Both the position numbers and the translations under genes were made by a program. From positions 1 through 60,853 of IMG/VR virus record IMGVR_UViG_3300034375_004361: a stretch of DNA of 60,853 bases; one strand, 5' to 3'. Source of the stretch: a virus. Its lineage: Duplodnaviria; Caudoviricetes. The notes under the pieces are model-generated. The model saw only the letters and a list, made by a program, of their open reading frames with translations, did no database searches and had not been told where the DNA came from. The stretch's first letter is position 1, and each line of letters opens with the position of its first letter. Shown piece by piece: positions 6,169 through 50,715 of this stretch.

Positions 6169-6199
6169 TGAAGTATATTTGTGAGGTAAAATTAAGGAT

Positions 6200-7111: not shown

Positions 7112-7126
7112 TTCGTAACTTAGGGC

Positions 7127-7405: not shown

Positions 7406-7406
7406 T

Positions 7407-35816: not shown

Positions 35817-38800
35817 ATGGAGACAAAGGAACAATTCCTTGCACGTTACCAAGCGGCTGTAGATGCTGGCGCATCAGAGGCTGAACTGCAAGCAATGCGT
35901 CGCGAGAGACTCGCGCAAGTCAGACGACAACAAGAAGAAGACGCTCGCCTTCAGCAAGAAGAAGCTGAGCGAAAAAAAAAAGAGCAAGAAGAGGCCGAGC
36001 GTTTACGTTTGGAGCAAGCTTCGGAGGTGGATTTTGGGGAGTCTACCTTGGCGTCTCCAGCTCAAGCGCCAGAACCACGGAGTGGAGATTCGGATTCTCC
36101 TCCCGTAGTATTTAACCCCCACCAGAACTACGAGTTTCAGGGCAGGCAAATTCCAGGCGCCGATGCCCAGATGGTGTACGATTACGGACAGGCCTATGAG
36201 TCAAACCGTAACAAGTGGATTGAGGAGAACTTTGACATCTTCCAATACTATGATTCCAAAGGCTTAGATACATCTAGGCTGGAGCAAATGTCTCAAGACG
36301 AGCTAGAGCAAGAAAGGCTCTCGATGATTGAGGCTCTTGAGTACGGTGTCCAAAACAACACCGAAGATGGCCTGTTGGAGTTTGCCCGAGGATTGCCTGA
36401 TGCACCGCAACCAGACACTTTCGACCAACTGTTTAATATCCCAGCCAGAGCAATCTATTCTGGAAGGGATAAAGGATTTTACGCTCCAAATTTTGAGCCC
36501 GAAGAGGGCTCCACTCTTGAAGAGCGAGAACAGCAATACAAGGATTTCGTTCTAGACCTTGAGAGAAAGTCTGCAAGCAACGAGATATTCTCTTATATCA
36601 ACGGACAGATTGAGCCTGATGCTTCATCGCAATTCCAGGAAACGTTAGGCTCTGACCTCACATTAGAACAAAGGCGTTCTATTGAGCAAAACCTTTACAG
36701 AAACTACGACATTGCCACTGACCTTACTGGTGAGGGATACGTCAACGAGTCTGGTCAAGGATGGCTTGGTGTAACAGACGTGTTTTCCCCTGGATTCAGG
36801 AAGAGTTCCTTGAGCATGTGGGACGGTGTTGCTACCGCAGTGGAGAATGCACTAGGAGGAAACGAGGAGGACCAAACAGCACGGAGAGAACGTATCGAAG
36901 AAATCCGTAAGGAGATGGCGGTGTCCAATAAATCTCTTGAGGAGAAGCTTTTAGAAGGAGATGTCGGAGGATTTTTCTCTGACAGTATTGGTATGCTCGG
37001 GGCTTCAGCCCCTTTGATGGGTGCTGCAATGCTTACTGGTGCGGTAAGTCGTGGTAATGTGCGGGCTGTTGGTAGTGTTACATCCCTCCTAGGTGGGGCA
37101 ACAGTTTACTCAGAAAACAAAGACACTGATTGGTTTAAGAACTTGAGCGATGCTCAAGCACTTGGGTTTGTGGTTAGCAGTGGTGTGGCCGAGGGACTGC
37201 CCGCAGCTGTGGGTTCTCAAATCTTTGCTGGAAAAACTATTGCTGGCGCAATTTTTAAGAACATTGTCACAGAGGGTGCCGAGCAATCATTCAAGCAGTG
37301 GACAAAGGGTCTCTTGATTGGTGCAGGCTTGGGCGCTGTTGAGGAAGGTATCACAGAGGGGGTTACCGCAGGCTGGCAGTATACCTCTAGAATCAATGCT
37401 CAACGCGCAGGGGGCGAAGCTGTCAAGTGGGATTACGACGAGTTCTGGAGGCAAACGCGGGAGGGTGCTCTCGCGGGTATGTCTATGGGTGCTACAATGG
37501 CAAGCTCTGGTGACGTTGCTAGAACTGTAGCAAGCAAGGGAATAGACCTTATCAAAACAACAGCGGTAATCAAGGAGTTGCAGCAGTCGTTTACTCAAGC
37601 GGAGAGCAAGCAAGAAAGAGCTGCAATCGGAAAGAGGATTGTTGAAGCTGTTAGTGCCTTCAGCAAGCTTAGCGAAAAGCGGGTTGCCTTGATGGAGGAG
37701 TTGGAGCAATCTAACCCCGAAGCCTACAAGCGTCTTGTTGAGATTCACAACAGGGTTGAGGTTCTTGCAGAGAAGTACACACGAGCTGACCGTACTGCAA
37801 GAGCAGGAATTACCAAGGAGGTTCGCAAGCTCCTCGACGAAAGGGGAACTATTGAAGGTGAAATGGACGCCATCTTTGAGACAGACGGCAAGGTTGAGTC
37901 TCAACTTCTAGCAAGGGCAGCTCGTAAGGCTGGTAAGCGCAGAAGTAATTATGGTGGTTTGTTTGAAGACGGTAGAGGAAAGGTCACCGTCAGCTCGGAA
38001 AACTTTGGTTCAGTATCTAAGATTCTTTCTAAGCTTACAGAATTTGATGTGAGCCCATTCACTACCGTAACACAGGACGGCAAAGAGCGTCAGGTAACTA
38101 CTGGTGCTCGTATTGTCAAGGGTGTTCAGAACGCCATGAACGTCGTCAAGGCGATGTCTTCTCTTGGAGACTTTCAGTTTGAAATCTACAAGGACTTTGA
38201 CACTATGGTCGAAGACCTCATGGAGATGGAAACGAAAGACCCAGAGACTGGTGAGGTAAGAAAGATGAACCGTGAGGAGGCTGCGAACATGGTTGCTCGT
38301 GGCTTGTACATTGGTCAAGGAAAAGCCAAGCTGTTTCTTCCTGGAATGCTTGAGAACACAGCTTACCACGAGGGGTATCACGACTTCGTCATCCAAAGCC
38401 TTGGTACTCAGGCTGCTGTTGGTCTCGCAAAGAAGCTTTTCCAAGCCCTGCCAGACAACCTGAAGCAACGCTACGGAAACTTCCTCAAGGATTACGGAGA
38501 TGGAACTGGAGACCTTACTGGAACCCTCCGCAATAAGAACGTAAACAAGGGTGTTAAGGTCGAGTCTGCCGATGAGTTCTTGATGGAGTTCTTGGCTGAC
38601 CTCAGTGCTGGTAATATCAGCGTTGACATCCAGAAGAGCGCCATCAGAAAGTTCATGGAGTTCTTGTCACCGCATCTCGGGAGGATTGGGGTGAGAGATA
38701 TCCCATCTGCTAAGATTGAAGACGTTGTATCTGCGGTCAACAGATTGACTTCAGATGTTAGAGAAGGTCGCCGCATCGACTCTATCGAACAGCTCAAAGC

Positions 38801-41800
38801 TGCTACCATCAGAGCCAACTATGCAGGGATTGCTATGAAGGCTGGCATCATTTCAGATGACGATGCAGAAGACGGGTTTGATGAAACCAAGAAGCAGGCC
38901 ATGGAGTCTGGTGGCAACAAGATTTTTGCTACTGTAGTATTTAAGGTAAGCTTGAGCGGCAAGGCTAACTGGCCCGTCAAGAAAGTGTTTGAGAACCAAG
39001 CACACCTCGACAACTTCGTGTCCTACATGGAGCGTAATCGCGGGTGGAAGTTTGATGAGCTGTATGTCCACGAAGGTGAGTACAACTCTGAAACCAGACA
39101 GGCCACAAGACAGAAGTCTGAGCCTATTAGAGAGACGAGAGACGCGACAAGCATTGACATCATTGATGCTTCAGATGCAAAGGGCATCAGCTTCTTCGCT
39201 CGCTCTATGGACAGAGCCATGAAGATGATGGCTGAGCGTGGCATTAACATTGGTTTGCAAGTCACCCAGCTTTCAGAAGAGGACGTACAGAAAATCGTAG
39301 ACGAGGGTGGTACAATCTTCATGACATCAGACTACGGTGCTGGAGGCTACATCACCAAGGAGGGATACGTTGGCGGCATCTTCAAGAACCCTGACTCTGT
39401 ATTCAAGAGAATCACCAAACCCATGTTCGCATGGATGGAAGCTTGGGCGGCAGAGAGAGACCTTGAGATTTTCTTTGATGCATTTGCTACAGAACTTGAG
39501 GACATCTACATCGGACTCGGATATAAGCCAGTAGGAAGAACCTCGTTCAACAGGGAGTACGCTCCAGATGGATGGGATGCAGAGAACTCACCTCTGCTTG
39601 ACGAGCCTGACGTGGTGTTCTTTACCAAGGGTGAGGGTAGCAAGGGCGAAGGCGTTAGATACGACGACTATATGGAGGCCTATGACGTGGTAAGCAATAG
39701 CGTCAAGAAGCCCAAGGCACAATCCTTGCCCAACCCTGAGCTAGAGCAGAACGCTCCCGTTCCATTCCAGCAAGCAGCGAACGTTAGCGAAGCTCAGATG
39801 GCTGAGCGCCGCAAGGAGATTAAGCTGCCAGAGTCTCAGAGACAGACACGTAATGCTGTTGTATTGGACGTGCTCAACAAGTACGAGCTTGGAGAAATCA
39901 CACAGGAGGATTACTTGCGTGCGGTCAGGGAAAACATGCCCATCAAACCATTTGAGACCGTACCAGAAATCCCAACAGTTCTCGACGTCGCTTCTTCGCT
40001 TACCTCAGACAAAGTCACTAAGGGAATCATTGGGGTAAACAAGGAGTTGCCCGACGGATACTACGTGGGCCTTCGTCTCGACATCCCTGCCTACGACACC
40101 TACGACACATGGGTAGTGTCTGTACACCAGGGTAAAAGAGCTGAAGAGAGAACACCATTCTTGGGTGGCAAGGCTATCGGATACGGTCAGACAGCGGTAA
40201 TTACAAACGCAACGTTTGACTCTACACCTATGGCTTCCCTCAACATTGCAAGGGGCAAGGGTAAGCAGACCATTGCTCGCATGTTCGGTGACTACAAGAA
40301 CGAGTCCCCTGAGTCCGTGTACCAGAGAGCTGTCGATATCATGAATGGGTCAGAATACAACTCTGACTACAAGCAGATTGGTAAGATGGAAGGCTGGATT
40401 CAGGTCGGGATGAACCCGTTCCGTCACAGCTGGTTCTACGACAAGCGAGATGGCAGACCTATCGCCGAATCTTCTGAGGTCATTCAAGTGGGTGCCCTCG
40501 TTCTCGCCAAAGATGCAGTCAAAATTTCTGAGTCCGATGAAAGATTCAATGCGAAAAGCCGCGTTAGTGGGCAGACGATTAAGTTCCAAAGGGTTGGCTC
40601 TCAAGGAGTTGACCCCGTTGCGCTCGTCAAGCCACAACAGCTCGGCATATTCAACCTTGAGTTCAGCGCCACTACAACTCAGATGGATGAGTGGCTTGCC
40701 AGTGGTACTGTAAGAACAGAAGACCTGTCCATGCTCGAAGGACGTGCAGTTCTATCTCACTCACCAGATAACATGATGGTTGGCACAGCAAGTGTCGACG
40801 GTCGGGTGATTGCAAAGAACGGTGGTGGTCTCTTCTACTCTGCAAACACGGGAGACGTGTGGGCGGTGGCTGGCGAATCCGCTGGCAAGAACATGGCGGG
40901 TGAGCTCAACAAGTTGCTCAAGGAGTCCCGAGACGGAAAGGCATACATGCTTCTCATCAGTGGGGGCAGGATGAAGCACAGGAGCTCCACCAACGGCGTT
41001 GTCACATTTGCAAACTTGGGACTTGAGCTAGTCAATCAAGGTGTCTTGACGAAGACTGAGTACAAGAATGCCTTGAAGAAAACCATCGCTCTTACTGAAG
41101 AAAGGTCTATTGCCGCTCAGATTAAGGCTAACGAAACGAAGGTCAAGAAAGGAGGTAAGGCTGACCCTCTCAAGAGGGGAACTGCTAAGCTCAGTAGTAT
41201 GGCTGGTAGCACAGAGGCTTTGATGCAGAGGTTCTTCGAGGAGTTTGCCTCAGCAAAGAAGTCAACCTTTGAGCAGAGGAGGGAGTTTGCGGAAACGTTT
41301 GGAACTGTTCTCGGTGAAGTTGTCAAGGCCAAGGCTAGTCAGGACAGCAAGACCAAGGCAGACATCATTGCCAAGTACGAAAAGATGTTTGATGCCAAGC
41401 CGAACATGCGTCAGTTCGGTTCGTTCCTGAAGAACTTCTTCTTCGATTACTTCCAAGAGAAGGTGCTGCAAGGCGTTGAGCCCAATCAGATTTACGGAGC
41501 CATTGAGATTACCTCTGAGGTAAAGCTTGAGAGAGACCCGAACCCTCTTGCTTCATATCCGCTCAAGTTGGTTAACGTTGACACCAACGCTCCAGCTCCG
41601 AAGACTATTGTGTTCAAGACAATGAATGACGCTATCTCCACACTGGAAAGTAGAGATAGAAACATTGAGCAAAACAACAGACTCGGTGTTGGTGACATGA
41701 AGCTTGACGCCAAGGGCAAGCTTTCCTACATCACCAAGCAAGCATTCCAGATGATGGGAGGCATGGGTCAGGCCACTTGGGGTCGGATGTTTGTCAAGGA

Positions 41801-44800
41801 AGCGATTCCTGTAGATGCGATTTCAAGAGAGGTAAAGTCTGTTTCAGAGAGTGTTTCTGTTATCCAAAGTGCTAAGGCTCAGGGCAATCTGATGAAGCTC
41901 ATCGCTGACATGGTTGACCCAGCGGCACCCACTCCAGGCGCGAGAGTGAATAAGCGAGGAAAGCTTATTATTACGCCCTCGAAATCGGAGCTATGGAACA
42001 GAAAAAAGTCGGAGGTAATCGAGCTGCTCACTGCGAGCGGCATGAGCAAAGAGAACGCAGAGGCCTTGTATGCTGCTGCAAAAGCTTACAAGGAAGGAAG
42101 GACAGCGGGAAGGAAGGCTGCAGAAAAAGCTGCTCGTAACACCCTCGGCAAGAGAAACCAAAAGCTTAGCACCGAATCAAAGAGACTCAAGGAAGAACTA
42201 GACAAGCTTAAATCCAAAGCGAAGACAGTTGACGAGTTCTTTGGGTTCGCAGTAAAGCTCATCAACGAGCGTATGAAAGAGTTGGGTACTGTGCCCTTCT
42301 CCAACAAGGACGTTCAAAGGTTGATGAAGATTGCTAGGCAGGCTCACAAAGCTTCTGCTGCAAGGATTAAGAAAGAGGGTGGGGCTGAGGTGATGGACAC
42401 CTTTGTCGAGAAGCTCATCGACATCTTTGACAAGAAGGATTCGCAGAAGGCCATGGCTAATTACTTGGCCTCGGTGTCTGCTGCAAGAAAGCTTCAGCAG
42501 TCTTTGCGTCGTGTGGTCAAGTCACGTAAGAAAGGGGAAGCCCTCAAGTCTACCGCATCCTACAGTTCTGTCATTGGGAAACTTGCTGGCATCAACCCAG
42601 CATTGATTTCTCCTGCAGATATGGGGGACTTCCTCAACACCTTGGCTGCAGCTACAAGCTCTGTGACCAAGGTCAAGACGAAGTTCGACACAGAGGAGCA
42701 GCGCGTTGTTGCCGAAGCTCCGCAGAGAATCTCTGTTGAAGCTCTTGAAGTATTGGCTAACAAGTTCAAGGCCCTTGAAGAGATTGGAAGGAACGCGGCT
42801 ATGGTTGCCAAAGCCAGGGCTGCTGCAGCAAAGAACAACACGAGCTTTGATGAGGAGTATGACAAACTGGTCAAAGCATTCGAGAGGGGCAGACTGAGTG
42901 CAACACGCAAGGCTATCCTTGACTTTATCGACAACAACCCTGCACTCAACCTCGACCCAGCCAACCCAGCTGACGTAGAGTTTGTTTTGGGTAAGCTCGC
43001 AGAAGACAAGGCAGACTTGTTGGAACAGCAAAAGGATGCAATCATCACTGACGTGATTATCCCCAGAATCTTTGGGAACTTGGACAAGCTTCTTGAAGAC
43101 CAGCACATTGCAGAGATATTGGGAATCTTCGCAGAGGATGGGTTTGACCCACAGGCTCTGCGTCAGCGACTCAACAAACTAGACAAGATTACCCTTGCCA
43201 GCCTTGAGTTCAAGCTCGATGACTACATCATGAATGACTCGGTCATGGGTCTCGGATACTTGGCGGCAAGAGTTCGCGGTAAGATTGAGATGGCTGACAA
43301 AATTGATTCTGAGTTGGTAGCGAAAGGTATCGGTGCAGTTGGACAACCATTCTTGGCATTGTTTGATACAGCAGACTCGTTCATCAGACTCATCTTCCCT
43401 CAGGGTAACAAGACCATCGCTGAGATTAGAAACTACATTGGTTTCGCTCAGATGGAGAGAGCCTTTGCTAAGGCGGACATGATTCACGCGATGACTGTAG
43501 AGGCCATCACCGATGAGATGACCCGCATCGAAGAGGAAGGGGGCAGCCTTCGGTCAGTCAAGGACAATGCAATCATGCAAGTGTTCTCTATGGCTAGACA
43601 GATGCCGATGCTTGAGGAGGGGGCTCCAGGTCAGAACGCGGCAGAGTGGTACCTGAACTTGCGCGACGCTATGAAGCGAAGCATCGAGCACTACTCTGAG
43701 CAGAAAGACCTGTACAGCAACGAGGAGATTCAGGAGATGCAGGAGGCTTTCGACTACCTCTTCTCTGAACCTAATCTTGAAGGTTTGATTGACAAGGTTA
43801 CTAGTGAGCGTGCTGACCTTGCAGAGTTTGTCGACTTCATGGTCAACATCCACGGCACACAGCAAGACACCTTCGCCAACTACGTTGAGAGATACCTCGG
43901 TAAAACACTCAAAGTAGAGTCAAACTACACACCCTTCCAGGTTAAGACCAAGGTCCGTAATGACGCTGTCGATGAACAGCTCGCTATGCGTCAAGCTATC
44001 ATGGATAGCATGCGTACCTCTTCATTGGCAAACGCCAAGAAAGTTGCAGGTTCCTCTTACGAGCGTAATCCAAAAAGCATCAGCGGTGGTAACAATATCA
44101 TCGGCTTGAACTTCTTGAAGATTAACGAGCGTACACTTAGAGAGAACACAATCCTTACCAACACCGTTGGCGATGTGATGGCGTTGCAGGGAGCCTTCGC
44201 AAGTGAGGCGATGACTAAGCTTATCAAGGATGACGGTACGAGAAAGCAGCTGCATAACAAGATGATGCAGTACATCACTCAGGATGCGGGGCAAGCACCT
44301 GTTGCTTTCCAGTCAACAATCAGCATCAAGGGAAGAAAGGTGTTTAACCCACTGACCTTGGTTAGGAACGCTGTCGTTGTGAAGGCGTTTGGTTCATTGA
44401 TTATTCAGACCATGAAGCAATCTACTGTTGCTATCAGTGTCATGTCTAACGCAGAAAGGCCAACCGAAACCATCCCGTACTTCATCCAAACGATTGGTGA
44501 ACTCTGGGCTCACGCATTGAGAAACGGATTGTTCAAGGATTCCAAGCTTGCTCTGGAAGCTAACGGTAGATACAAGCTCCTCCAGAACTCTCCCGTGTTC
44601 TCAAGAGACTACGAGGCAGGTAACATCGACCCATACACTGGCAGCATCCAGACAGAAACAAACTGGTTCCAAAGAACCCAGGATAAGTTGACGTCTGTTG
44701 CCCTGCAGAACCTGAAGTCTACAGATAAAGTGGTCGCCGTCTCATCATGGTTTGCCTTCTATGCAGACTACCTCTTGTCCGAGGGTATCGTTGATAGTAT

Positions 44801-46130
44801 CGCCGACATCGACTGGCAAGAGCAGGCAGGTTCTCCTAACCAGGATGCACTTAGCTACGCTGACTCGATGGTTACGAAAGACCAGGCAGCGTCAACCCCA
44901 AGACAGGCAGCTGACGTATACAAGGATGAAGGCGGAGCACTTGCTCCCGCAGTGGCGTTCGTGAGAAACGTTGTCTTGCCCTTCGCAAGATTCGCTGTGA
45001 ACAAGAAGAGAAGCATCTACTCAGACTTCAGAAAGATTACCCAGGGTGATGCCCAAACAAAAAGAGAGGGATACAGATTGATGGCTGGTCACATGGCTGA
45101 ATTGGCTATGTTCCACACAATCGGTCAAGTCCTTATCCCCGCTGTCGCTCAGCTGCTCGCGGGTGAAGACGAAGAAGAGTCGGAGTTCAAGGACAACAAG
45201 TTGCTTAACATCGCAGCCAGTGTGGTCATTGACATGCTTCCCACCCCTCCCGTTGGATACTCTGACGACTTGCTCAAGGAGTTTGCCAACTACGCCATCT
45301 TGTTCAAGCTCCCACAGATGCTGGGTGATGAATCATTGCAGGCCACTCAGGGAGAGAGCGATGCCGAGTTGTTTGAACGCATGAAGCGTACACGTCCGAC
45401 CATCAGAACATACCACCAAGGAGCTGAGCTTACGGCAACATCTGCTATGAGCATGCTTATGGGACCTTACGGACAGTTCATCAACGACGCCGCCAACATT
45501 GTTCAGAACCTGTCCATCACAGATAACAAGGTAATCTCATCCACAGGTAGAGAATACTTCGTTAGACCTGAGGACAAGGACCGAATGGACATCCACCACG
45601 GCGCCAGGTTCCTCCTTGCCCTGAGTCAGATTGCTGGGTTCTCTTCAAAGGAACTCGATGTGATTGTTCGCAGGATGGACGACCTCCCTCGTGAACGTTC
45701 ATTCAACTCTGAAGAAGAACTTGCGGCATACGAAGTAATCATGCAAGGCTTCCGTCAAGAAGATGAGATTGCATCACTGCTTAGTGATGAGGCGGGGACA
45801 GAGAGGATTGCAAGAATCCTTCAGGAGAAGGCGAACATGAGTCCGTTCGAGGCTAGACGTGCAACTACTCGATTCAGAAAGGGTCTCGTCAGAGCTGCTG
45901 CTGAAGAATCCCTCAAGGAATATCCAGGATACTCCAAGCACATCCGAGACATCAGGTCAATCGACAAGGCGGCAAAGGATGCAAAAGACTACTACATCAT
46001 TGTGAATCGTAGAAAAGAACAAATGCCTGCAGCAGAATACGCTGAGTTCAAGTATCTTGCTGATACCTACATGGCTATCCTGAGGCAGGGCATGCTTCAA
46101 GAGAGTTCTTACTACAATATCACACAATGA
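35817..46130 (+). CDS. Giant polyvalent ejection protein, 3437 aa (zincin HExxH, GNAT-like and other domains)
   Basis: Hydrophobic Gly/Ala segments near aa 400-570; AYHEGYH...DEFLME; DAF...L.DIY..LGYKPVGR..FN.EYAP.GW. Confidence 0.7.
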   Translation: METKEQFLARYQAAVDAGASEAELQAMRRERLAQVRRQQEEDARLQQEEAERKKKEQEEAERLRLEQASEVDFGESTLASPAQAPEPRSGDSDSPPVVFNPHQNYEFQGRQIPGADAQMVYDYGQAYESNRNKWIEENFDIFQYYDSKGLDTSRLEQMSQDELEQERLSMIEALEYGVQNNTEDGLLEFARGLPDAPQPDTFDQLFNIPARAIYSGRDKGFYAPNFEPEEGSTLEEREQQYKDFVLDLERKSASNEIFSYINGQIEPDASSQFQETLGSDLTLEQRRSIEQNLYRNYDIATDLTGEGYVNESGQGWLGVTDVFSPGFRKSSLSMWDGVATAVENALGGNEEDQTARRERIEEIRKEMAVSNKSLEEKLLEGDVGGFFSDSIGMLGASAPLMGAAMLTGAVSRGNVRAVGSVTSLLGGATVYSENKDTDWFKNLSDAQALGFVVSSGVAEGLPAAVGSQIFAGKTIAGAIFKNIVTEGAEQSFKQWTKGLLIGAGLGAVEEGITEGVTAGWQYTSRINAQRAGGEAVKWDYDEFWRQTREGALAGMSMGATMASSGDVARTVASKGIDLIKTTAVIKELQQSFTQAESKQERAAIGKRIVEAVSAFSKLSEKRVALMEELEQSNPEAYKRLVEIHNRVEVLAEKYTRADRTARAGITKEVRKLLDERGTIEGEMDAIFETDGKVESQLLARAARKAGKRRSNYGGLFEDGRGKVTVSSENFGSVSKILSKLTEFDVSPFTTVTQDGKERQVTTGARIVKGVQNAMNVVKAMSSLGDFQFEIYKDFDTMVEDLMEMETKDPETGEVRKMNREEAANMVARGLYIGQGKAKLFLPGMLENTAYHEGYHDFVIQSLGTQAAVGLAKKLFQALPDNLKQRYGNFLKDYGDGTGDLTGTLRNKNVNKGVKVESADEFLMEFLADLSAGNISVDIQKSAIRKFMEFLSPHLGRIGVRDIPSAKIEDVVSAVNRLTSDVREGRRIDSIEQLKAATIRANYAGIAMKAGIISDDDAEDGFDETKKQAMESGGNKIFATVVFKVSLSGKANWPVKKVFENQAHLDNFVSYMERNRGWKFDELYVHEGEYNSETRQATRQKSEPIRETRDATSIDIIDASDAKGISFFARSMDRAMKMMAERGINIGLQVTQLSEEDVQKIVDEGGTIFMTSDYGAGGYITKEGYVGGIFKNPDSVFKRITKPMFAWMEAWAAERDLEIFFDAFATELEDIYIGLGYKPVGRTSFNREYAPDGWDAENSPLLDEPDVVFFTKGEGSKGEGVRYDDYMEAYDVVSNSVKKPKAQSLPNPELEQNAPVPFQQAANVSEAQMAERRKEIKLPESQRQTRNAVVLDVLNKYELGEITQEDYLRAVRENMPIKPFETVPEIPTVLDVASSLTSDKVTKGIIGVNKELPDGYYVGLRLDIPAYDTYDTWVVSVHQGKRAEERTPFLGGKAIGYGQTAVITNATFDSTPMASLNIARGKGKQTIARMFGDYKNESPESVYQRAVDIMNGSEYNSDYKQIGKMEGWIQVGMNPFRHSWFYDKRDGRPIAESSEVIQVGALVLAKDAVKISESDERFNAKSRVSGQTIKFQRVGSQGVDPVALVKPQQLGIFNLEFSATTTQMDEWLASGTVRTEDLSMLEGRAVLSHSPDNMMVGTASVDGRVIAKNGGGLFYSANTGDVWAVAGESAGKNMAGELNKLLKESRDGKAYMLLISGGRMKHRSSTNGVVTFANLGLELVNQGVLTKTEYKNALKKTIALTEERSIAAQIKANETKVKKGGKADPLKRGTAKLSSMAGSTEALMQRFFEEFASAKKSTFEQRREFAETFGTVLGEVVKAKASQDSKTKADIIAKYEKMFDAKPNMRQFGSFLKNFFFDYFQEKVLQGVEPNQIYGAIEITSEVKLERDPNPLASYPLKLVNVDTNAPAPKTIVFKTMNDAISTLESRDRNIEQNNRLGVGDMKLDAKGKLSYITKQAFQMMGGMGQATWGRMFVKEAIPVDAISREVKSVSESVSVIQSAKAQGNLMKLIADMVDPAAPTPGARVNKRGKLIITPSKSELWNRKKSEVIELLTASGMSKENAEALYAAAKAYKEGRTAGRKAAEKAARNTLGKRNQKLSTESKRLKEELDKLKSKAKTVDEFFGFAVKLINERMKELGTVPFSNKDVQRLMKIARQAHKASAARIKKEGGAEVMDTFVEKLIDIFDKKDSQKAMANYLASVSAARKLQQSLRRVVKSRKKGEALKSTASYSSVIGKLAGINPALISPADMGDFLNTLAAATSSVTKVKTKFDTEEQRVVAEAPQRISVEALEVLANKFKALEEIGRNAAMVAKARAAAAKNNTSFDEEYDKLVKAFERGRLSATRKAILDFIDNNPALNLDPANPADVEFVLGKLAEDKADLLEQQKDAIITDVIIPRIFGNLDKLLEDQHIAEILGIFAEDGFDPQALRQRLNKLDKITLASLEFKLDDYIMNDSVMGLGYLAARVRGKIEMADKIDSELVAKGIGAVGQPFLALFDTADSFIRLIFPQGNKTIAEIRNYIGFAQMERAFAKADMIHAMTVEAITDEMTRIEEEGGSLRSVKDNAIMQVFSMARQMPMLEEGAPGQNAAEWYLNLRDAMKRSIEHYSEQKDLYSNEEIQEMQEAFDYLFSEPNLEGLIDKVTSERADLAEFVDFMVNIHGTQQDTFANYVERYLGKTLKVESNYTPFQVKTKVRNDAVDEQLAMRQAIMDSMRTSSLANAKKVAGSSYERNPKSISGGNNIIGLNFLKINERTLRENTILTNTVGDVMALQGAFASEAMTKLIKDDGTRKQLHNKMMQYITQDAGQAPVAFQSTISIKGRKVFNPLTLVRNAVVVKAFGSLIIQTMKQSTVAISVMSNAERPTETIPYFIQTIGELWAHALRNGLFKDSKLALEANGRYKLLQNSPVFSRDYEAGNIDPYTGSIQTETNWFQRTQDKLTSVALQNLKSTDKVVAVSSWFAFYADYLLSEGIVDSIADIDWQEQAGSPNQDALSYADSMVTKDQAASTPRQAADVYKDEGGALAPAVAFVRNVVLPFARFAVNKKRSIYSDFRKITQGDAQTKREGYRLMAGHMAELAMFHTIGQVLIPAVAQLLAGEDEEESEFKDNKLLNIAASVVIDMLPTPPVGYSDDLLKEFANYAILFKLPQMLGDESLQATQGESDAELFERMKRTRPTIRTYHQGAELTATSAMSMLMGPYGQFINDAANIVQNLSITDNKVISSTGREYFVRPEDKDRMDIHHGARFLLALSQIAGFSSKELDVIVRRMDDLPRERSFNSEEELAAYEVIMQGFRQEDEIASLLSDEAGTERIARILQEKANMSPFEARRATTRFRKGLVRAAAEESLKEYPGYSKHIRDIRSIDKAAKDAKDYYIIVNRRKEQMPAAEYAEFKYLADTYMAILRQGMLQESSYYNITQ

Positions 46131-46657
46131 AATTAGAAGTTTTAAGAATAAGCAGTCAAGAGGATTCTACTTCGGGAGTTCTCTTTGACGTCACTGGAAA
46201 CAGAGAGTTCCTGTGTTACACACTAGAAGATGAACAAAGAGATACAAAGATTGCTGGAGAGACTCGCGTACCCGCTGGAACTTATCGAATCACTTATCGA
46301 ACAGAGGGTGGCTTCCATAAGAAGTACTCCCACCGCTTCCAAGATATTCATCGGGGTATGCTATGGGTTCGTGATGTTCCTGGCTTTGAGTACATACTTA
46401 TTCATTGCGGTAATACTGACGAGCATACTGCTGGTTGCCTCCTGGTTGGAGAGACTCAGTCGAGCAATGTTAAAACTGCTGACGGGTTTATTGGAAAAAG
46501 CACACAAGCCTACTTCGACTTCTATCCCAGAGTTGCTGAAGCTCTTGACCGAGGCGAAGAAGTAATCATTACATATATCGACTACGATGGAAAACAAAAA
46601 GATAAAAGAAACAAAGCTCGGTTCCTGGCTAAAACAAAAAGCCCCCGCCGTTCTTGA
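46127..46657 (+). CDS. DUF5675-family protein (candidate endolysin)
   Basis: FLCYTLED, ETRVPAGTY, VPGFEYILIH.GN...HTAGCLLVG; adjacent to holin. Confidence 0.75.
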   Translation: MKLEVLRISSQEDSTSGVLFDVTGNREFLCYTLEDEQRDTKIAGETRVPAGTYRITYRTEGGFHKKYSHRFQDIHRGMLWVRDVPGFEYILIHCGNTDEHTAGCLLVGETQSSNVKTADGFIGKSTQAYFDFYPRVAEALDRGEEVIITYIDYDGKQKDKRNKARFLAKTKSPRRS

Positions 46658-47027
46658 CGTAGCTGGTGACATGCTGCCCGACCAGGGTATGCTTGGTGTG
46701 GTCAAGAACCTGCTCGACAAAGAGCCAGGAGTTGACCCATCCGAGGCCAAGGCTATGGTAGATGCAGAGATTGCGTACCAGAACAACGTGACTGAGAGAT
46801 GGAAGGCAGACATGGGCAGCGATGTCAAGCTGGCAAAGCTTATCAGGCCCGTCACTTTGATTGCTTTAATGAGCATGTTTATGGCGACCATGGTGGCTGA
46901 CAGCATGGACAACTGGGCCTTCAACGTAAAAGACAGTTACGTATCTTTGTTAGAGATTCTAATGTTGACTTCTTTCGGTGCATACTTTGCGGGCCGCACC
47001 ATTGAAAAAGCTCGACCAAAAAAATAA
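46587..47027 (+). CDS. Holin (3TM/GTA-type-like)
   Basis: RWKADM.SD..L.K.IRP; two C-terminal TM helices; AYF.GRT.EK. Confidence 0.75.
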   Translation: MENKKIKETKLGSWLKQKAPAVLDVAGDMLPDQGMLGVVKNLLDKEPGVDPSEAKAMVDAEIAYQNNVTERWKADMGSDVKLAKLIRPVTLIALMSMFMATMVADSMDNWAFNVKDSYVSLLEILMLTSFGAYFAGRTIEKARPKK

Positions 47028-47029
47028 TC

Positions 47030-47302
47030 ATGGCATACAGTTTTGCATCTAAACAGTGGACCATTTCTGGTGAACACACTTTCAACGACCAGGGTATCAC
47101 ACTTTTGAACCCAGTCATCAAACCAAACAGCGTCAGAGTTAAAGGGGAGGTGGTGTATGTTGACTTTGAACTCACCGAGAACGGAGGCGTGTACAAGCAC
47201 GGCACTTCATTCAAGTACGACACCACTACAGAAAACAACATCAACGATTTGGTTGACGACGTAGTGGCAGCTGCATTCCCCACCGCAACAGTTGTAGAAT
47301 GA
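47030..47302 (+). CDS. Hypothetical protein, 90 aa, beta-rich
   Basis: ORF with A-rich leader, coupled to next ORF. Confidence 0.7.
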   Translation: MAYSFASKQWTISGEHTFNDQGITLLNPVIKPNSVRVKGEVVYVDFELTENGGVYKHGTSFKYDTTTENNINDLVDDVVAAAFPTATVVE

Positions 47303-47436
47303 GCGAGAAGAGAGACGACTTCGGCTGTGATTTCTTGGACCAAGACAAGCTCAAGGAACAAGAAGCAAAGATTGAGAGCGGAGAGCTGGTATGCAACATG
47401 GAGAATCCAGAGGAGTGTGAGGCTTGCGGTTCCTAA
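47299..47436 (+). CDS. 45-aa acidic peptide ending in an RNR-alpha-like C-terminal Cys tail (not in ORF track)
   Basis: MSEKRDDFGCDFLDQDKLKEQEAKIESGELVCNMENPEECEACGS; ATGA overlap with upstream gene. Confidence 0.75.
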   Translation: MSEKRDDFGCDFLDQDKLKEQEAKIESGELVCNMENPEECEACGS

Positions 47437-48463
47437 TGGGCTGAGGCTTTTCCTCGTCGCATCACTTTTGTGCGTGGCTTCTGTCGCTCAAGGACAGCTG
47501 CTACGATTTTCTACGCTCTACGGTAGCCTCAGTGGTAATGCCCCACTAGTAGAGAACTCTAAGTACAGAGTTAATGGAGTTGCTGGCTCAGGATATCTTG
47601 AAGAGATTACTGAGGTAAACAAAGCAAACTACATTCTCACCGTTGGCCTTAGGAAGATTGCTAGGTTTGACTATCAGGTCAAGCAAGGTCAGTTCTACAC
47701 GGGTCAGGAGAACGAGATTAGTGACAATGCTACTGTGTCAAATGCTCCAGGACTGGAGTACTTGCTTGAGTATTCTGCTGTCAGGAACAGAGGTGATGTC
47801 TTCCGCCAGCAAGAGTACAGGGTAAGGTATATCAGTAACTGGTTCACGTTGAGGGGTAGCTACATCAGTGATGGCCTTATCAATCTGAAGTACACTCAGG
47901 CAGAGCTCAGACTACGCAAGAGGTTTGGAGACTTTGACTTTACAATAGGTGCCGCTCACAGGGCGCACCCAGTGTATGGGTACTCTCCCATCGAGGCTTG
48001 GTTTGATGACCCAAACAACAAGCACTGGTGGCAGCTTGCAAACGAGTTTGGCTTTTACAGTGACGATGATGAGGTCTGGAGACTAAACGGTGATGTCATT
48101 GCCCAATCCGACGTAGAGTTTTACGGGTATCACTTTGGTGATATTGTAAATGACTACAACAGAAGAGAGCTGAGTGAGTTTGGGCTTCAGCAAGAACTAT
48201 CTGGTGTCGTAGGTATTGACTACTACAAGTACGGTGAAGACTCTTGGGTCCACACATGGTGCTCTATTTACAGCATGCACAGAGGACTTGACGACTTCTC
48301 TTTTGACTACGAAGACCCCATGGATATTGAGTGGGACGCTGGTTTAGTCATCGGCTCAAAGCTCAACAATCATCTTAGTATATTTGTAGAAGCCAGACAC
48401 TTACAGTACTGGCAGATTACATCATACGCGGGTAGGTGCGGCTTTAATTATTTATTCTTCTAA
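47417..48463 (+). CDS. Putative outer-membrane beta-barrel protein
   Basis: Likely GTG start at 47417; signal peptide ending VAQG/Q; amphipathic aromatic-rich strands; C-terminal GFNYLFF. Confidence 0.65.
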   Translation: MRLAVPNGLRLFLVASLLCVASVAQGQLLRFSTLYGSLSGNAPLVENSKYRVNGVAGSGYLEEITEVNKANYILTVGLRKIARFDYQVKQGQFYTGQENEISDNATVSNAPGLEYLLEYSAVRNRGDVFRQQEYRVRYISNWFTLRGSYISDGLINLKYTQAELRLRKRFGDFDFTIGAAHRAHPVYGYSPIEAWFDDPNNKHWWQLANEFGFYSDDDEVWRLNGDVIAQSDVEFYGYHFGDIVNDYNRRELSEFGLQQELSGVVGIDYYKYGEDSWVHTWCSIYSMHRGLDDFSFDYEDPMDIEWDAGLVIGSKLNNHLSIFVEARHLQYWQITSYAGRCGFNYLFF

Positions 48464-48465
48464 AA

Positions 48466-48741
48466 ATGGCAAAGGTTGGCGAGAACACTGAGGTAACTCT
48501 AGATTTGAAAACTCTAGGGATGGTAGCCGCAGGGGTTGGGAGCATGGTCGCCATGTGGTTCTCGCTTCAAGCGGACATCGCTGAGGCCAAGGAGTTGCCA
48601 GCTCCTCATGCTCCTGAGATTACTCGAATGGAGTTTGACATGAAGGACCAGCTCGTTCGACAGACAATCATGAGCACACAGGAGGATGTCACCGAGATGA
48701 AGGAGGACATCAAGATGATTAAAGAAAAACTTTATGAGTAA
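48466..48741 (+). CDS. Single-TM protein with C-terminal coiled coil
   Basis: LGMVAAGVGSMVAMWFSL then heptad-like DVTEMKEDIKMIKEKL. Confidence 0.7.
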   Translation: MAKVGENTEVTLDLKTLGMVAAGVGSMVAMWFSLQADIAEAKELPAPHAPEITRMEFDMKDQLVRQTIMSTQEDVTEMKEDIKMIKEKLYE

Positions 48742-49105
48742 GGTTGTTCTTCTTCTGCTCTTCTTACCGCTATCTGCATTGTCTCAAAACTTTGTAACGC
48801 TTGATGACCTTGACTCTAAAAAGTCAAAGGGTATTACGGTGATTGAGTTCTGGGCTGCCTGGAACAAAGGCAATCAAGTTGAGTTCTTAAAAGAACTAAA
48901 AGACTGCAGGTCTTATCGACTATCTATTGATGACAACCCTGTTGCTGTATCGCAGTACACAGTTAGTAGCGTGCCCACATTGCTTGTCTTTGATAACGGG
49001 ACTGAGGTCGCTCGATTCTCTCCGACAATCATGATGCAGCTTTCTGCAACAAGACAAGAAATTCAACAAGAGATAGACCAGATTATTCTAAAAAAGTTTC
49101 AATGA
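48734..49105 (+). CDS. Exported thioredoxin-fold protein lacking the CxxC active site
   Basis: Signal peptide ALS/Q; VIEFWAAWN (for WCxxC), IDDNP, Y.V.SVPTLLVFDNG.EV.R. Confidence 0.75.
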   Translation: MSKVVLLLLFLPLSALSQNFVTLDDLDSKKSKGITVIEFWAAWNKGNQVEFLKELKDCRSYRLSIDDNPVAVSQYTVSSVPTLLVFDNGTEVARFSPTIMMQLSATRQEIQQEIDQIILKKFQ

Positions 49106-49629
49106 TGAAGAGGTTTCTTTCGACTATCGCCACGGCTTTCGTTCTAATCCCAGCGTGGACACAGCCAAATGTAACCCCTGTCTTTGTAGAGTGTACAGCA
49201 GGGGAGTACCCAAACGAGATTACGTGGGAGATTATGACGTGCGACAGCATGGTTCTTCTTGGAGGAGGTGCTCCGTACTTCGGGGCCGCGTTGATGCCAG
49301 ACCCAGATAGGTTCATCATTCACATGATGGACAGCTACGGCGACGGATGGAATGGCGCATACCTTTTCGTAGGTGAGGGGCAGTATGGATTCCTGTCCGA
49401 CGTTGATTGGATTGACTCACTTGGAACCTGGCCCCAAGACCAACCAGAGCAGTGGGTTACTGTAGGATGCGGTCAGCCTATCACAAGCATTGACGAGATT
49501 GTTGAGGACACGTTCTCAGCTACAGAATACTACAACCTCTTCGGTCAACGTGTACAGCTCAACGGTCCTGGATACTACGTTGCCACAGATGGCACGCGCT
49601 CAAAGCTTATCTACAGGAGAGAAGATTAA
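49102..49629 (+). CDS. Secreted protein with T9SS-like C-terminal sorting domain
   Basis: Signal peptide AWT/Q; YPNEITWEI, DSYGDGWNG; C-terminus SIDE...YYNLFGQRV....GYYV....SKLI. Confidence 0.65.
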   Translation: MMKRFLSTIATAFVLIPAWTQPNVTPVFVECTAGEYPNEITWEIMTCDSMVLLGGGAPYFGAALMPDPDRFIIHMMDSYGDGWNGAYLFVGEGQYGFLSDVDWIDSLGTWPQDQPEQWVTVGCGQPITSIDEIVEDTFSATEYYNLFGQRVQLNGPGYYVATDGTRSKLIYRRED

Positions 49630-49823
49630 GGATTGATTGAGTTGTAGAACCGCTCATCAATATCCTTGATGGGGAGAATAAACTCCCTATCACAATAGTC
49701 ATTGATTTCTTTCTGCTGTTCTGGCGTATTCGTCACACAGTTATTGGCGGCTTGATACTGCGCGTTCTTGGTGAGGAGCTCGTGAATCTTGGCTCGCTTC
49801 TCTGGGCATTTGATATCTCTCAT
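49626..49823 (-). CDS. Hypothetical protein, last gene of minus arm
   Basis: Stop overlaps convergent gene's stop (TTAA). Confidence 0.65.
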   Translation of the reverse strand: MRDIKCPEKRAKIHELLTKNAQYQAANNCVTNTPEQQKEINDYCDREFILPIKDIDERFYNSINP

Positions 49824-50152
49824 CTCATTGAAATAAATAGTGGTGACTTCTCCCCTACGTATGCGCCTACGACATTGAACTCCATGAACTCAATAGCGCT
49901 GACGCAATCCATACCATCTCGTTCAATCAGGATGTTTACGCAGTGCTCGTAGTCATAAACAGCGACAGGATTACTACCGTGAGTATGACCCATCAACGCA
50001 TCCCCAAAACCATCAGCAAGTAGGGCCTTGTTGTCTTCAAGGACAGTCATCACTTGCTCATCTCTCATCTCTCTCATCCCGTTGAAAAACTCTTCTGTGC
50101 CGTCAAGCCAGTTCTGGTCGACGTCGTTGTCCCAAAGCTTTGGATATCTCAT
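49820..50152 (-). CDS. Conserved phage protein, 110 aa
   Basis: LADGF.DA.MG...AVYDY....IL..RDGM....A.EF.EFN..GAYVGE.SP. Confidence 0.75.
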   Translation of the reverse strand: MRYPKLWDNDVDQNWLDGTEEFFNGMREMRDEQVMTVLEDNKALLADGFGDALMGHTHGSNPVAVYDYEHCVNILIERDGMDCVSAIEFMEFNVVGAYVGEKSPLFISMR

Positions 50153-50715
50153 AGCTCGATTGTTTTAATGTATCCGTTTACGTGTTTGTTTTTAAGCATC
50201 TCTTGTTCTGGAACGAGCCAACCCCTCGCATTATTGTCTCCCTTCACACTACATGGGACATCTTTCCATCCATGTTTCTTACCTCCGCTGTCATCCACCC
50301 ATACAGCAAAGTCCTCTAGGTAAAACACGTGAGCGTAATCGCAAAGGTGCTCACCCTCAGGTGATGTTTTCTTGAAAATGTAAACGAATATGTCTGCCTC
50401 TCCAACGCTTGAATAAATGCCACACTTCTTGCCCGTGGTTAAACTCATCCACTCCATGAAGAGGTTGGGACAATCGCTCCCTCGTCGGTTCATGTATTCA
50501 TATCCTGACGTGTCGTACTTGACCTCGAACCGAGTGTTCTTCTGGTTCTCCAAGTCCCAGTAGAGACGTTTGTTTGGAGGCTTTACGTCTGAAGAACGGA
50601 TAACAGTATCACCCCTTGACACAAGGTACCTCTCCCATAAGCGTTCCCCTTCGTCTCCCTCTCTTATCTTCTTACGAAAGTTTGAACTGCCCATCGTTCG
50701 ATTCATTGTACTCAT
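50149..50715 (-). CDS. PD-(D/E)xK nuclease-like protein
   Basis: G..GE, WDL......FEVKYD, NLFMEW. Confidence 0.6.
   Translation of the reverse strand: MSTMNRTMGSSNFRKKIREGDEGERLWERYLVSRGDTVIRSSDVKPPNKRLYWDLENQKNTRFEVKYDTSGYEYMNRRGSDCPNLFMEWMSLTTGKKCGIYSSVGEADIFVYIFKKTSPEGEHLCDYAHVFYLEDFAVWVDDSGGKKHGWKDVPCSVKGDNNARGWLVPEQEMLKNKHVNGYIKTIEL

Follow-up and report, generated by a model that had tools for sequence, protein, structure and literature searches.

A conserved block of envelope-protein genes in the lysis cassette of a phage probably infecting Bacteroidota: a candidate outer-membrane lysis module

The way in which phages of Bacteroidota breach the outer membrane (OM) of their hosts is largely unknown, and the locus described here raises the question of whether a block of phage-encoded envelope proteins, located at the place in the lysis cassette that is usually occupied by spanins, performs this step. 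The window, i.e. the whole stretch of DNA that was analysed, is a complete phage genome of 60.9 kb. Its host is probably a member of the Bacteroidota, since the relatives of its terminase belong to phages of Flavobacterium (68), Cellulophaga (15), Tenacibaculum and Maribacter. The preferred reading, with a probability of roughly 0.45, is that the block performs the OM step of lysis in a Bacteroidota host as a substitute for spanins. The module is presented as a cloneable candidate for a third kind of OM lysis device; should the lysis reading be wrong, what is left would still be a large family of phage-encoded envelope proteins that awaits characterisation.

Layout of the block and its surroundings

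A preliminary description had noted five tightly coupled genes just after an endolysin candidate and a holin. The coordinates, with all five genes on one strand, and the Pfam and PHROG matches, with DUF5675 for the endolysin candidate, bear this out. The features are as follows.

46127..46657, + strand: DUF5675 protein, candidate endolysin with an L,D-transpeptidase/C82-like peptidase fold (Pfam DUF5675, 2.3e-26; phrog_1501, 4.6e-31)
46587..47027, + strand: holin (phrog_3427 holin, 2.4e-21)
47030..47302, + strand: g90, an open reading frame (ORF) of 90 aa without a family match
47299..47436, + strand: g45, small acidic protein with four Cys and no signal peptide, conserved in 6 loci
47417..48463, + strand: OM beta-barrel with signal peptide and +1 Gln (predicted model, fold matches, relatives)
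48466..48741, + strand: TMcc, predicted bitopic inner-membrane protein (alignment of 39 sequences)
48734..49105, + strand: trx, predicted periplasmic thioredoxin fold with NxxN for CxxC (Pfam Thioredoxin, 5.2e-6)
49102..49629, + strand: ctd, accessory secreted protein with signal peptide, predicted beta-sandwich and C-terminal tail (model; 139 relatives)
49480..49629, + strand: C-terminal tail module of ctd (profile shared with A7, a second secreted family)

The stop of g90 overlaps the start of g45 at 47299-47302, TMcc and trx overlap by 8 nt, and the trx/ctd junction is an ATGA overlap. For the barrel, the start at 47327 given by the ORF list was replaced by a conserved GTG at 47417, identical to that used in 5 relatives, and with this start the overlap with g45 amounts to 20 nt. 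g90 matched no family in Pfam, PHROG or NCBIfam, and jackhmmer detected no homolog of it in 107 related loci; g45 likewise had no family match. A homolog of g45 with the same C-terminal Cys motif is located elsewhere in a barrel-less relative (L171), and g45 is a small, cytoplasmic-looking protein whose position shifts among relatives. A scan of 45800-50300 for promoters and terminators gave counts not above those of shuffled sequence. In three metatranscriptome runs, short identical contigs with a depth of 2-5 overlie sections of the barrel, of ctd and of holin/g90; these contigs may be DNA carry-over, and the gaps in coverage carry no meaning.

A relative of the DUF5675 protein is annotated as an L,D-carboxypeptidase/transpeptidase in Pseudomonas phage Cygsa01, and excerpts of a preprint term DUF5675 C82-like and list it as a lysin candidate. 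The holin of the window remains below the cut-off of Pfam GTA_holin_3TM (0.02), whereas that of one relative (L010) exceeds it (5.1e-7), and holin homologs adjoin the block in relatives. On its other side, the cassette lies downstream of the structural genes and of a 3437-aa protein, on the same strand, as would be expected if its products were virion or assembly proteins found by chance at the end of the structural arm. This is most improbable, given three cleavable Sec signal peptides, one BAM-type barrel and the position of the block in relatives, which is between the tail genes and endolysin-holin and not among the head/tail genes.

Envelope proteins encoded by the block

The three Sec signal peptides with Gln at position +1 recorded in the preliminary description are conserved across relatives, Q18 being invariant in 53 trx sequences and Q27 conserved in at least 90% of 53 barrels; in A7, a second secreted family, Q19 is invariant in 12/12 members. 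A +1 Gln is reported for Bacteroidetes, as the 'Q-rule', in passages of two papers (PMC5837995, PMC10653852).

The OM barrel that had been proposed is likewise predicted by structural modelling, with 14 strands and a pLDDT of 69, and the model matches solved OM barrels of 12 strands (Z 15.7 for EstA and 15.3 for KdgM; Foldseek E 1.5e-6). The aromatic C-terminal beta-signal is also conserved, the terminal Phe being invariant in 19 sequences, and the protein thus combines the features of a BAM-type barrel, i.e. a signal peptide, an even-numbered antiparallel barrel and a C-terminal aromatic residue. Among 53 barrel sequences, 38 columns are invariant and include His, Ser, Asp, Glu and Arg; the model places a large helical insertion at residues ~186-256, and the segment 82-111 is very conserved and modelled with low confidence. 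The family comprises 260 representatives in 1.84 billion proteins, and 582 of 598 pattern matches in IMG/VR encode barrel relatives, so that at least 582 stretches, in hundreds of contigs of uncultured aquatic phages, carry them. On the other hand, none of 61 pattern matches in bacterial genome contigs is a relative, and tblastn with two family members as queries gave no match in cultured phages. The barrel has no Pfam or PHROG family, its Pfam match at E<=1 being sub-threshold and irrelevant; its language-model neighbours (unnamed bacterial barrels, SlipAM and OMP_b-brl, at 0.95-0.96) are generic. An Ail/Lom identity was rejected, there being no Ail_Lom Pfam match at E<=1. Longer or fused forms of the barrel or trx were sought and none was found, which is weak evidence.

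TMcc, described earlier as an N-terminal membrane anchor with a coiled coil, does possess a conserved N-terminal hydrophobic segment and a tail that is predicted to be helical and heptad-like, according to its sequence and an alignment (A4). The architecture of the 39 aligned sequences consists of a short N-terminal stub, one transmembrane (TM) segment, an acidic Pro-containing linker and an amphipathic helix, and the charge distribution predicts an inner-membrane protein with the helical part, of ~55 residues, facing the periplasm. Over its N-terminal 38 columns the alignment matches a paralog family (hhalign 96.6%, E 6e-10) that is also present in Pelagibacter phages, beside peptidase M15. 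Eleven of the 39 members match phrog_20984 (function unknown), only 1/39 matches the PHROG Rz-like spanin family, and weakly (E 0.0048), and tblastn found no TMcc in cultured phages. When TMcc (35-91) and trx (18-123) were modelled as a complex with the barrel (27-348) as partner, the score was 0.00, where the mark is 0.32, and the prediction is uninformative.

The thioredoxin fold without CxxC is confirmed for trx by Pfam Thioredoxin PF00085 (5.2e-6; 26.8 bits against a cut-off of 23.5), with N44 and N47 in place of the cysteines; the match to TIGR01068 (4.8e-9) is below its cut-off, and identity to TrxA is 35% over 69 residues. The active-site position reads W-N-x-x-N, and in 53 sequences N44 is invariant together with only Q18, P81 and T82, N47 being at least 90% conserved. 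The cis-Pro is retained, while replacement of CxxC by a conserved NxxN makes thiol-disulfide chemistry impossible. Since no Cys is found at or near the cleavage site, where the +1 residue is the invariant Gln, and since there is no membrane anchor either, a link to the OM, or an attack on it, would come from the barrel where one is present.

The product of ctd is modelled (pLDDT 71) as a beta-sandwich (residues ~25-121) followed by the tail; Foldseek returned 0 matches at E<=0.001, the best structural Z of 5.9 is within noise, and all 139 relatives are unnamed. It is found in 33/107 loci, in near relatives only, a distribution that marks ctd as an accessory protein outside the conserved core. 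Its tail recurs in A7, an otherwise different family of distant relatives (hhalign: 37 columns, E 7.4e-5, probability 62%), and 123/130 matches of the tail profile lie no more than 12 residues from a C-terminus. In 10/12 A7 members, a weak LDL-A-like Ca-binding motif was observed (best E 0.01, below cut-off), and beyond it no feature supports the nutrient or metal uptake that had been suggested as a function of the block.

The preliminary description had also assigned a T9SS-CTD-like domain to the fifth gene. What holds of this is a conserved tail of ~45 aa, but every HMM test was negative: Por_Secre_tail (PF18962/TIGR04183) and DUF6383 (PF19910) matched 0/17 ctd and 0/12 A7 members at E<=10 and nothing in the phage genome, and ctd had no NCBIfam match. 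The type A CTD is described as a compact seven-strand Ig-like sandwich of ~70-90 aa (PMC11285876), and the modelled tail, with three short strands (142-144, 157-162 and 167-172), is too short for it. Several observations would nevertheless fit a T9SS-linked display, in which the tail would be a shortened sorting signal and the barrel a PorV-/PorP-like partner that receives or anchors tail-bearing cargo on the surface. Per locus, 38 hold both barrel and tail, 14 the barrel alone, 3 neither and 0 the tail alone; one tail is carried by two unrelated cargo types; its language-model neighbours, which are leads only, are mostly Por_Secre_tail or DUF6383 clusters (0.77-0.84); and its best PDB profile matches fall at the very C-terminal ends of two enzymes (E 0.025 and 0.031). 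Moreover, the Bacteroidota, the host phylum, have a T9SS. Against this stand the negative HMM tests, the size of the tail relative to ~75 model positions, the 14/52 barrel units without a tail protein and the barrel itself, for which a PorV/PorP-like identity was considered and is not supported: it has no PorP/SprF Pfam match at E<=1, no PorP/SprF chain is among its fold matches, and PorV (6h3i_F, Z 9.6) ranks below the 12-strand barrels (Z 13-16). Surface display of this type is thus judged improbable.

Conservation beside lysis genes and the proposed role

Co-occurrence in related phages, the lack of which the preliminary description had named as a refuting result, is extensive: 55/57 well-flanked barrel units also hold TMcc and trx, and TMcc is immediately 5' of trx in 104/104 cases. 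These figures are conditional, because every locus was retrieved through its likeness to barrel or trx and the phages are relatives of one another. The trio is kept despite rearrangement and a divergence of the barrel down to 35% identity, and the conserved core consists of the three genes for barrel, TMcc and trx. In differently ordered relatives, the next gene after the block encodes a Peptidase_M15_3 endolysin (6.9e-17; phrog_894 to 2e-38), and a phrog_3427 holin comes after it. Of the first 28 loci, 22 have an endolysin of the Peptidase_M15_3 or DUF5675 type, a holin or both beside the block, and the remaining 6 loci stop at the block; among the 57 distinct well-flanked barrel units, 45 contain a recognised holin or endolysin, one more (L108) does so by Pfam, and 11 have no lysis gene recognised within the locus. 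A complete relative of 61.5 kb (CheckV 100%) reads TMcc-trx-TMcc2-M15-holin and has no barrel. Its TMcc is nearly the same, so that the barrel is not the obligatory partner of TMcc, and at least one complete relative can do without it. Of the trans-envelope module that had been proposed, the envelope targeting of the encoded proteins is supported, as is their place inside a lysis cassette; a single fixed machine is not supported.

The absence of a lipoprotein o-spanin, noted earlier, also persisted: a lipobox regex scan, applied to every window ORF of 25 aa or more, returned 6 candidates, which reduce to three distinct ORFs once alternative starts are merged. All lie away from the lysis cassette, and their positions suggest frames nested within genes or antisense to them. 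No spanin PHROG was matched among the window ORFs scanned. Passages of Kongari et al. 2018 (PMC6139136) count 91 of 677 phages as spanin-less, including Bacteroides and Croceibacter phages, and state that the part of an o-spanin could be played by an OMP. According to one passage of a 2025 survey, the spanins reported for Bacteroidetes phages are all unimolecular.

On the preferred reading, the substitution for spanins, the module would breach the OM as the last step of lysis, after the action of holin and endolysin. The barrel would be exported by Sec and inserted into the OM by BAM, while TMcc and the translationally coupled trx would stand in for the i-spanin/o-spanin pair. Where present, the phage's own barrel would provide the link to, or the attack on, the OM, either as an anchor ('OMP as o-spanin') or by itself destabilising the membrane, and in many phages it is accompanied by a variable fourth secreted protein with the common C-terminal tail. 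What the sequences show directly is the gene content, the export signals, the folds, the conservation and the position among lysis genes; late expression, localisation, physical contacts and OM-disrupting activity are all presumed here. The reading is favoured by the flanking lysis genes, the co-occurrence, the envelope targeting, the lack of a canonical spanin and the presence of the TMcc module beside M15 elsewhere. It is weakened by the periplasmic part of TMcc, which is far below that of known i-spanins and too short alone to cross the periplasm, as well as by the barrel-less complete relative, the unanchored trx, the near-absence of spanin PHROG matches in TMcc, the conditional nature of the co-occurrence figures and the units without a recognised lysis gene. 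Adjacency to lysis genes, moreover, does not by itself establish a role in lysis; lambda bor, for instance, adjoins Rz/Rz1. More tentatively, a new class of OM disruptor might be built on the integral barrel, which would be the OM arm of a three-part spanin, with TMcc and a dead-thioredoxin adaptor, or an OMPLA-/LpxR-like lipid-attacking enzyme released or activated at lysis; tail proteins would then dock via their shared C-terminal hairpin.

The tightness of the TMcc-trx unit also suits a control of lysis timing, in which the two proteins would form a holin-partner or antiholin-like pair, as do, by analogy, the T4 holin T and the periplasmic RI. Where the barrel is missing, this unit is still found immediately 5' of endolysin and holin, trx is soluble, as is RI, and the stub and TM segment of TMcc are common to paralogs of other lysis cassettes, which fits an inner-membrane interaction module. 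However, neither sequence nor family membership ties the pair to T4 T or RI, a separate holin of the 3TM type is already there, and the strong linkage of the barrel would be left unexplained, its role and that of the tail protein being separate; such control is rather unlikely.

The block might instead remodel the surface or periplasm of the infected cell in a manner dispensable for lysis, by superinfection exclusion or by receptor masking that spares the loss of progeny on debris. Phages do encode OM or periplasmic proteins with roles of this type, for example lambda Lom and Bor or T5 Llp; the accessory tail protein varies in the way that surface-interaction proteins would, and the composition differs between phages. 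Yet the trio is retained across a wide divergence and stays with lysis genes, unlike morons, whose occurrence is usually sporadic; the invariant columns of the barrel are unlike those of surface proteins in an arms race, and its place at the end of the late arm suggests late expression. Remodelling of this kind is accordingly considered unlikely.

Comparison with known systems

No system of such composition was found in the literature and libraries searched, in agreement with the preliminary description; the barrel family is absent from PHROGs, and the module families are absent from the cultured phages searched. The redox-dead NxxN thioredoxin and the unusually conserved phage OM barrel are objects for structural and biochemical study. 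The tail resembles the T9SS type A CTD (Por_Secre_tail) in its C-terminal place on secreted proteins, its short motif and a weak language-model proximity, but differs in length (~45 vs ~75 aa), in strands (three vs seven) and in being HMM-negative. Similarly, trx shares with TrxA and redox-inactive thioredoxin folds the Pfam match, the partial identity and the cis-Pro, and differs in being exported and in its NxxN.

Lambda Lom, of the Ail/Lom family, is also a phage-encoded OM beta-barrel. Lom has 8 strands and is expressed from prophages, whereas the barrel described here is larger, has fixed partners and belongs to a lysis cassette. Its closest folds are the 12-strand OM barrels (the autotransporter beta-domains of EstA and NalP; the porins KdgM/NanC; the OM enzymes LpxR, Z 13.2, and OMPLA, Z 11.3), with which it also shares the signal peptide and the aromatic C-terminus. 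Identity to these is, however, 7-16%, with no common family, the phage barrel has no passenger domain, and the likeness to LpxR and OMPLA is of fold only.

The two-component spanins (lambda Rz/Rz1, T7 gp18.5/18.7) are alike in their place in the lysis cassette of phages with a diderm host and no other spanin, and in gene order, a small inner-membrane protein, for TMcc predicted to be N-in/C-out with a helical domain in the periplasm, being encoded ahead of an exported partner whose gene overlaps its own. The module differs in that trx has a thioredoxin fold and an SPase-I signal, lacks a lipobox Cys and is not an OM lipoprotein, in the shortness of the TMcc periplasmic part, in the additional integral OM barrel and in having no family-level similarity. 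The 'OMP as o-spanin', which in the passages of Kongari et al. 2018 (PMC6139136) is a proposal in print, combines an OM protein with an i-spanin-like protein in the absence of lipoprotein spanins; here the same combination is known from genes, with one relative being barrel-less. If the reading of a three-part spanin with the barrel as its OM arm is true, the module would be the first real case of an 'OMP as o-spanin'.

Lysis genes and their genomic setting

The window corresponds to one complete IMG/VR virus record, which is 60,853 bp long and carries direct terminal repeats, and in which the terminase, portal, structural proteins and a 3437-aa protein are encoded on the + strand, and the replication and recombination genes on the - strand from about 49.6 kb. 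Its large terminase shares 41-47% identity with those of phages of Flavobacterium (68 records), Cellulophaga (15), Tenacibaculum and Maribacter, and a Bacteroidota, Flavobacteriia-like host is therefore likely. The G+C content is about 49%, as against 33-41% in the more distant relatives that bear the module. The 3437-aa protein, a single ORF at 35817-46130 (+) immediately 5' of the lysis genes, has no PHROG match; its counterpart in locus L003 contains Pfam LPD38 (a 'large polyvalent protein' domain, 2e-35), and the product is likely to be a virion protein, either injected or internal. Distant from the lysis cassette, an SLT-domain protein (5082-5741, +; Pfam 2.9e-8) that matches PHROG endolysin and internal virion protein families represents a second peptidoglycan hydrolase, perhaps one associated with the virion. 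The lysis cassette itself is laid out as follows:

46127-46657, +, DUF5675 protein (Pfam, 2.3e-26)
46587-47027, +, holin (phrog_3427, 2.4e-21)
47030-47302, +, g90, small ORF
47299-47436, +, g45, small ORF
47417-48463, +, barrel, predicted outer-membrane (OM) beta-barrel, frame open from 47327, GTG start
48466-48741, +, TMcc, predicted small bitopic inner-membrane protein (ORF)
48734-49105, +, trx, Cys-less thioredoxin-fold protein, predicted periplasmic (ORF)
49102-49629, +, ctd, secreted tail protein (ORF)

The ORFs are as given in the preliminary description, the observations of which were largely right. Gene junctions across the cassette are stop/start overlaps or 2-nt gaps throughout. The GTG at 47417 provides the barrel with a normal signal peptide, and the same start is found in five close relatives. 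The DUF5675 protein is a plausible endolysin: a homolog carries the annotation L,D-carboxypeptidase/transpeptidase, and a 2026 preprint places DUF5675 with C82 peptidases as a lysin candidate. Three metatranscriptome runs contain short contigs, of depth 2-5, that are identical to parts of barrel, ctd and holin/g90; they hint weakly at transcription, DNA carry-over being possible.

Envelope-targeted proteins of the block

Barrel, trx and ctd each begin with an N-terminal hydrophobic leader followed by Gln. In trx this +1 Gln is one of only four invariant columns (53 sequences, mean column identity 44%), in barrel it is at least 90% conserved (53 sequences), and all 12 of 12 members of A7, a further secreted family, possess it. 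This conservation argues for Sec-type export leaders on barrel, trx and ctd, and the +1 Gln matches the Q-rule of Bacteroidetes as set out in PMC5837995 and PMC10653852.

The barrel was modelled from a 19-sequence alignment with 14 strands (pLDDT 69, pTM 0.62), a helical insertion at about 186-256 and a segment, 82-111, that is of low confidence yet extremely conserved. All 115 PDB matches of the model at E<=0.001 (Foldseek) are OM barrels, and a Foldseek-independent fold search ranks 12-strand barrels at the top; fold matches include EstA autotransporter (Z 15.7), KdgM (15.3), NanC (14.0), NalP (13.4), LpxR (13.2), Tsx (13.1), FapF (12.9), OMPLA (11.3) and PorV (9.6). Pfam, NCBIfam and PHROG contain no model for the family, of which a search of 1.84 billion proteins found 260 representatives (E<=1e-3). 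Across 53 sequences with identity down to 37% there are 38 invariant columns, and many of these are occupied by Arg, His, Glu, Asp, Ser, Trp or Tyr.

By sequence, trx is a true homolog of thioredoxin, with 26.8 bits against Pfam Thioredoxin (cut-off 23.5) and 35% identity to TrxA over 69 residues. The active-site Cys pair is replaced by Asn-x-x-Asn, of which the first Asn is invariant and the second at least 90% conserved, and the cis-Pro-Thr is likewise invariant (53 sequences); together these features point to a conserved, non-redox binding site.

TMcc begins with a stub of 15 residues and continues with a single hydrophobic segment, an acidic linker that contains Pro, and an amphipathic helix; we infer an N-in/C-out topology because the C-terminal flank is strongly acidic. 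A family of TMcc paralogs has only the N-terminal stub and TM segment in common with TMcc (hhalign 96.6%, E 6e-10, 38 columns) and is present also in Pelagibacter phages, lying one gene away from a peptidase M15 in HTVC027P and near the terminase and lysozyme in HTVC121P. The corresponding regions are L109 2986-3616 (HTVC027P gp15-gp16) and L110 2501-3099 (HTVC121P gp53-gp54); the stub proteins also carry an EFR[IV]KWPRG motif, and 3' of each of their genes lies one for a small protein (71-74 aa) that has a hydrophobic segment at its N-terminus and shares two conserved Cys. The two genes are possibly uncharacterised pelagiphage lysis genes.

Gene order, the separable barrel and the tail proteins

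A first scan of IMG/VR yielded 28 loci with barrels 50-86% identical, of which 22 have a holin and/or endolysin directly beside the block and the other 6 end in or just after it. A deeper profile scan found barrel relatives encoded in 582 of 598 pattern matches (80 loci kept), and a scan anchored on trx was positive in 421 of 528. The 179 annotated loci were reduced to 124 distinct units by merging those whose barrel ORFs or, in barrel-less loci, trx/TMcc ORFs agree exactly over the final 240 nt. In the window clade the genes run holin-g45-barrel-TMcc-trx-ctd; lower-GC relatives have the arrangement (70-aa TM protein)-barrel-TMcc-trx-ctd-Peptidase_M15_3-holin, the last two genes being recognised by Pfam (6.9e-17 and 5.1e-7) and by phrog_894 and phrog_3427.

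Among the 57 units in which the barrel gene is whole and has flanks of at least 4 kb on both sides, TMcc and trx are present in 55 and a recognised holin or endolysin in 45, with one more holin found via Pfam (L108). In 104 of 104 cases TMcc is the gene immediately 5' of trx. The preliminary description had proposed a single trans-envelope module, an idea that has its limits: the barrel is absent from three of 18 well-flanked trx-anchored units. One of these lies in a record with a completeness rating of 100%, in which profile searching over the full length revealed no barrel; its TMcc is almost the same as that of the window, C-terminus included, and a TMcc paralog lies 3' of trx. TMcc and trx therefore form the most tightly linked pair, which the barrel, with the tail proteins, accompanies often yet separably. 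In this record (L171) the cassette reads TMcc-trx-TMcc paralog-Peptidase M15-holin (5736-7614), and a g45-like small protein is encoded about 0.8 kb downstream (8383-8538).

Several other genes occur in or beside the block. A conserved 70-aa single-TM protein (L010 5771-5983 and 40 other loci), often just 5' of barrel or between barrel and TMcc, has no family match beyond a weak one to TssN (E 0.009) and is a possible extra holin or antiholin. In one lineage a 100-aa protein resembling DUF2279, 'predicted periplasmic lipoprotein' (E 1.3e-5, below cut-off), lies between TMcc and trx (L018 7295-7597) and might be a lipoprotein, because its leader ends in Cys. One distant locus (L102 4505-4912, 6014-6688) has an MscS beta-domain protein (Pfam 1.6e-5) 5' of barrel and a TMcc homolog of 224 aa that is much extended at the N-terminus. 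Near or beside barrel, four loci in which no endolysin was recognised share a conserved ORF of about 202 aa (L052 4412-5020, L055 3070-3678, L057 4379-4987, L098 6993-7610), which has no Pfam match and may be an unrecognised lysin.

The ctd protein is confined to near relatives (33 of 107 loci). Its model is a generic beta-sandwich with three short C-terminal strands, for which Foldseek and a second fold search gave no specific match, and its relatives are all unnamed. A 37-nt piece of its gene (49322-49358), which codes for the invariant SYGDGWNG motif, is matched by contigs from other organisms in both RNA and DNA runs; because the sequences on either side of the match differ from those of the window, the motif is part of a wider domain family. 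In more distant loci the gene after barrel encodes A7 instead (L052 6314-6991 and 11 other loci, directly 3' of barrel). Its N-terminus is Cys-rich with an LDL-receptor-A-like DCxDGSDE motif, a weak Ca-binding motif (best E 0.01, below cut-off) present in 10 of 12 members, and the protein also has long acidic DT/EY repeats.

The last 40 or so residues of A7 align with the tail of ctd (hhalign: 37 columns, E 7.4e-5, probability 62%), and 123 of 130 ORF matches to the tail profile in the loci lie within 12 residues of the C-terminus. In 55 units flanked by 3 kb or more, tail and barrel occur together in 38, barrel only in 14, neither in 3 and tail only in none. A tie of the tail proteins to the barrel is suggestive only, there being just three barrel-less units and the phages being related.

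The tail had been described as T9SS-CTD-like, and display through the T9SS would be one role for it. Weak leads in this direction are its best PDB profile matches (E 0.025 and 0.031), which fall at the very C-terminal ends of two enzymes originating from gut Bacteroidota metagenomes, and its language-model neighbours, the majority of which are Por_Secre_tail or DUF6383 clusters with scores (0.77-0.84) under the threshold. The formal tests of a sorting signal fail: neither Por_Secre_tail nor DUF6383 matches any ctd or A7 member or the phage genome at E<=10, and the tail is too short. T9SS-linked display is kept as an improbable rival.

A possible role in the outer-membrane step of lysis

That no lipoprotein o-spanin is recognisable, as first noted, holds. 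When all ORFs of 25 aa or more were scanned for a lipobox, with each start codon considered, six candidates emerged, representing three distinct ORFs with alternative starts; none is close to the cassette of lysis genes, and their positions resemble those of frames within genes or antisense to them. No spanin PHROG matches the cassette ORFs, nor 32 larger and 34 small ORFs of the window. In Kongari et al. 2018 (PMC6139136), 91 of 677 phages have no spanin, including Bacteroides B124-14 and Croceibacter P2559S/Y, and it is proposed that 'an OMP could act as an o-spanin'. According to a 2025 survey, the spanins that Bacteroidetes phages use are unimolecular only, and Bartlau et al. 2021 annotated unimolecular spanins at most, in some flavophages.

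The best-supported statement on the module is positional and compositional. The original proposal is right in part: a lysis-linked and envelope-targeted module finds support, and a fixed five-gene, T9SS-using trans-envelope machine does not. Action at the outer-membrane step of lysis is the likeliest role (a probability of roughly 0.45), because an envelope-targeted module lies in the lysis cassette of phages without recognisable spanins. TMcc and trx may then act as anchor and adaptor and reach a partner in the OM, which would be the phage barrel or, in barrel-less phages, something else; the barrel might be an OM destabiliser or an enzyme, and the tail proteins could be accessories docking to it. 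The main rival, control of lysis timing by TMcc-trx, is unlikely, and envelope remodelling or exclusion by the module ranks a little below it, ahead of T9SS-linked display.

No barrel/thioredoxin lysis module is described in the open-access papers and preprints searched, and its families were not found in the cultured phages searched. A low but appreciable probability attaches to its being a new class of outer-membrane disruptor. What is new is a barrel/thioredoxin envelope module within an otherwise known setting, the phage lysis cassette and its outer-membrane step.
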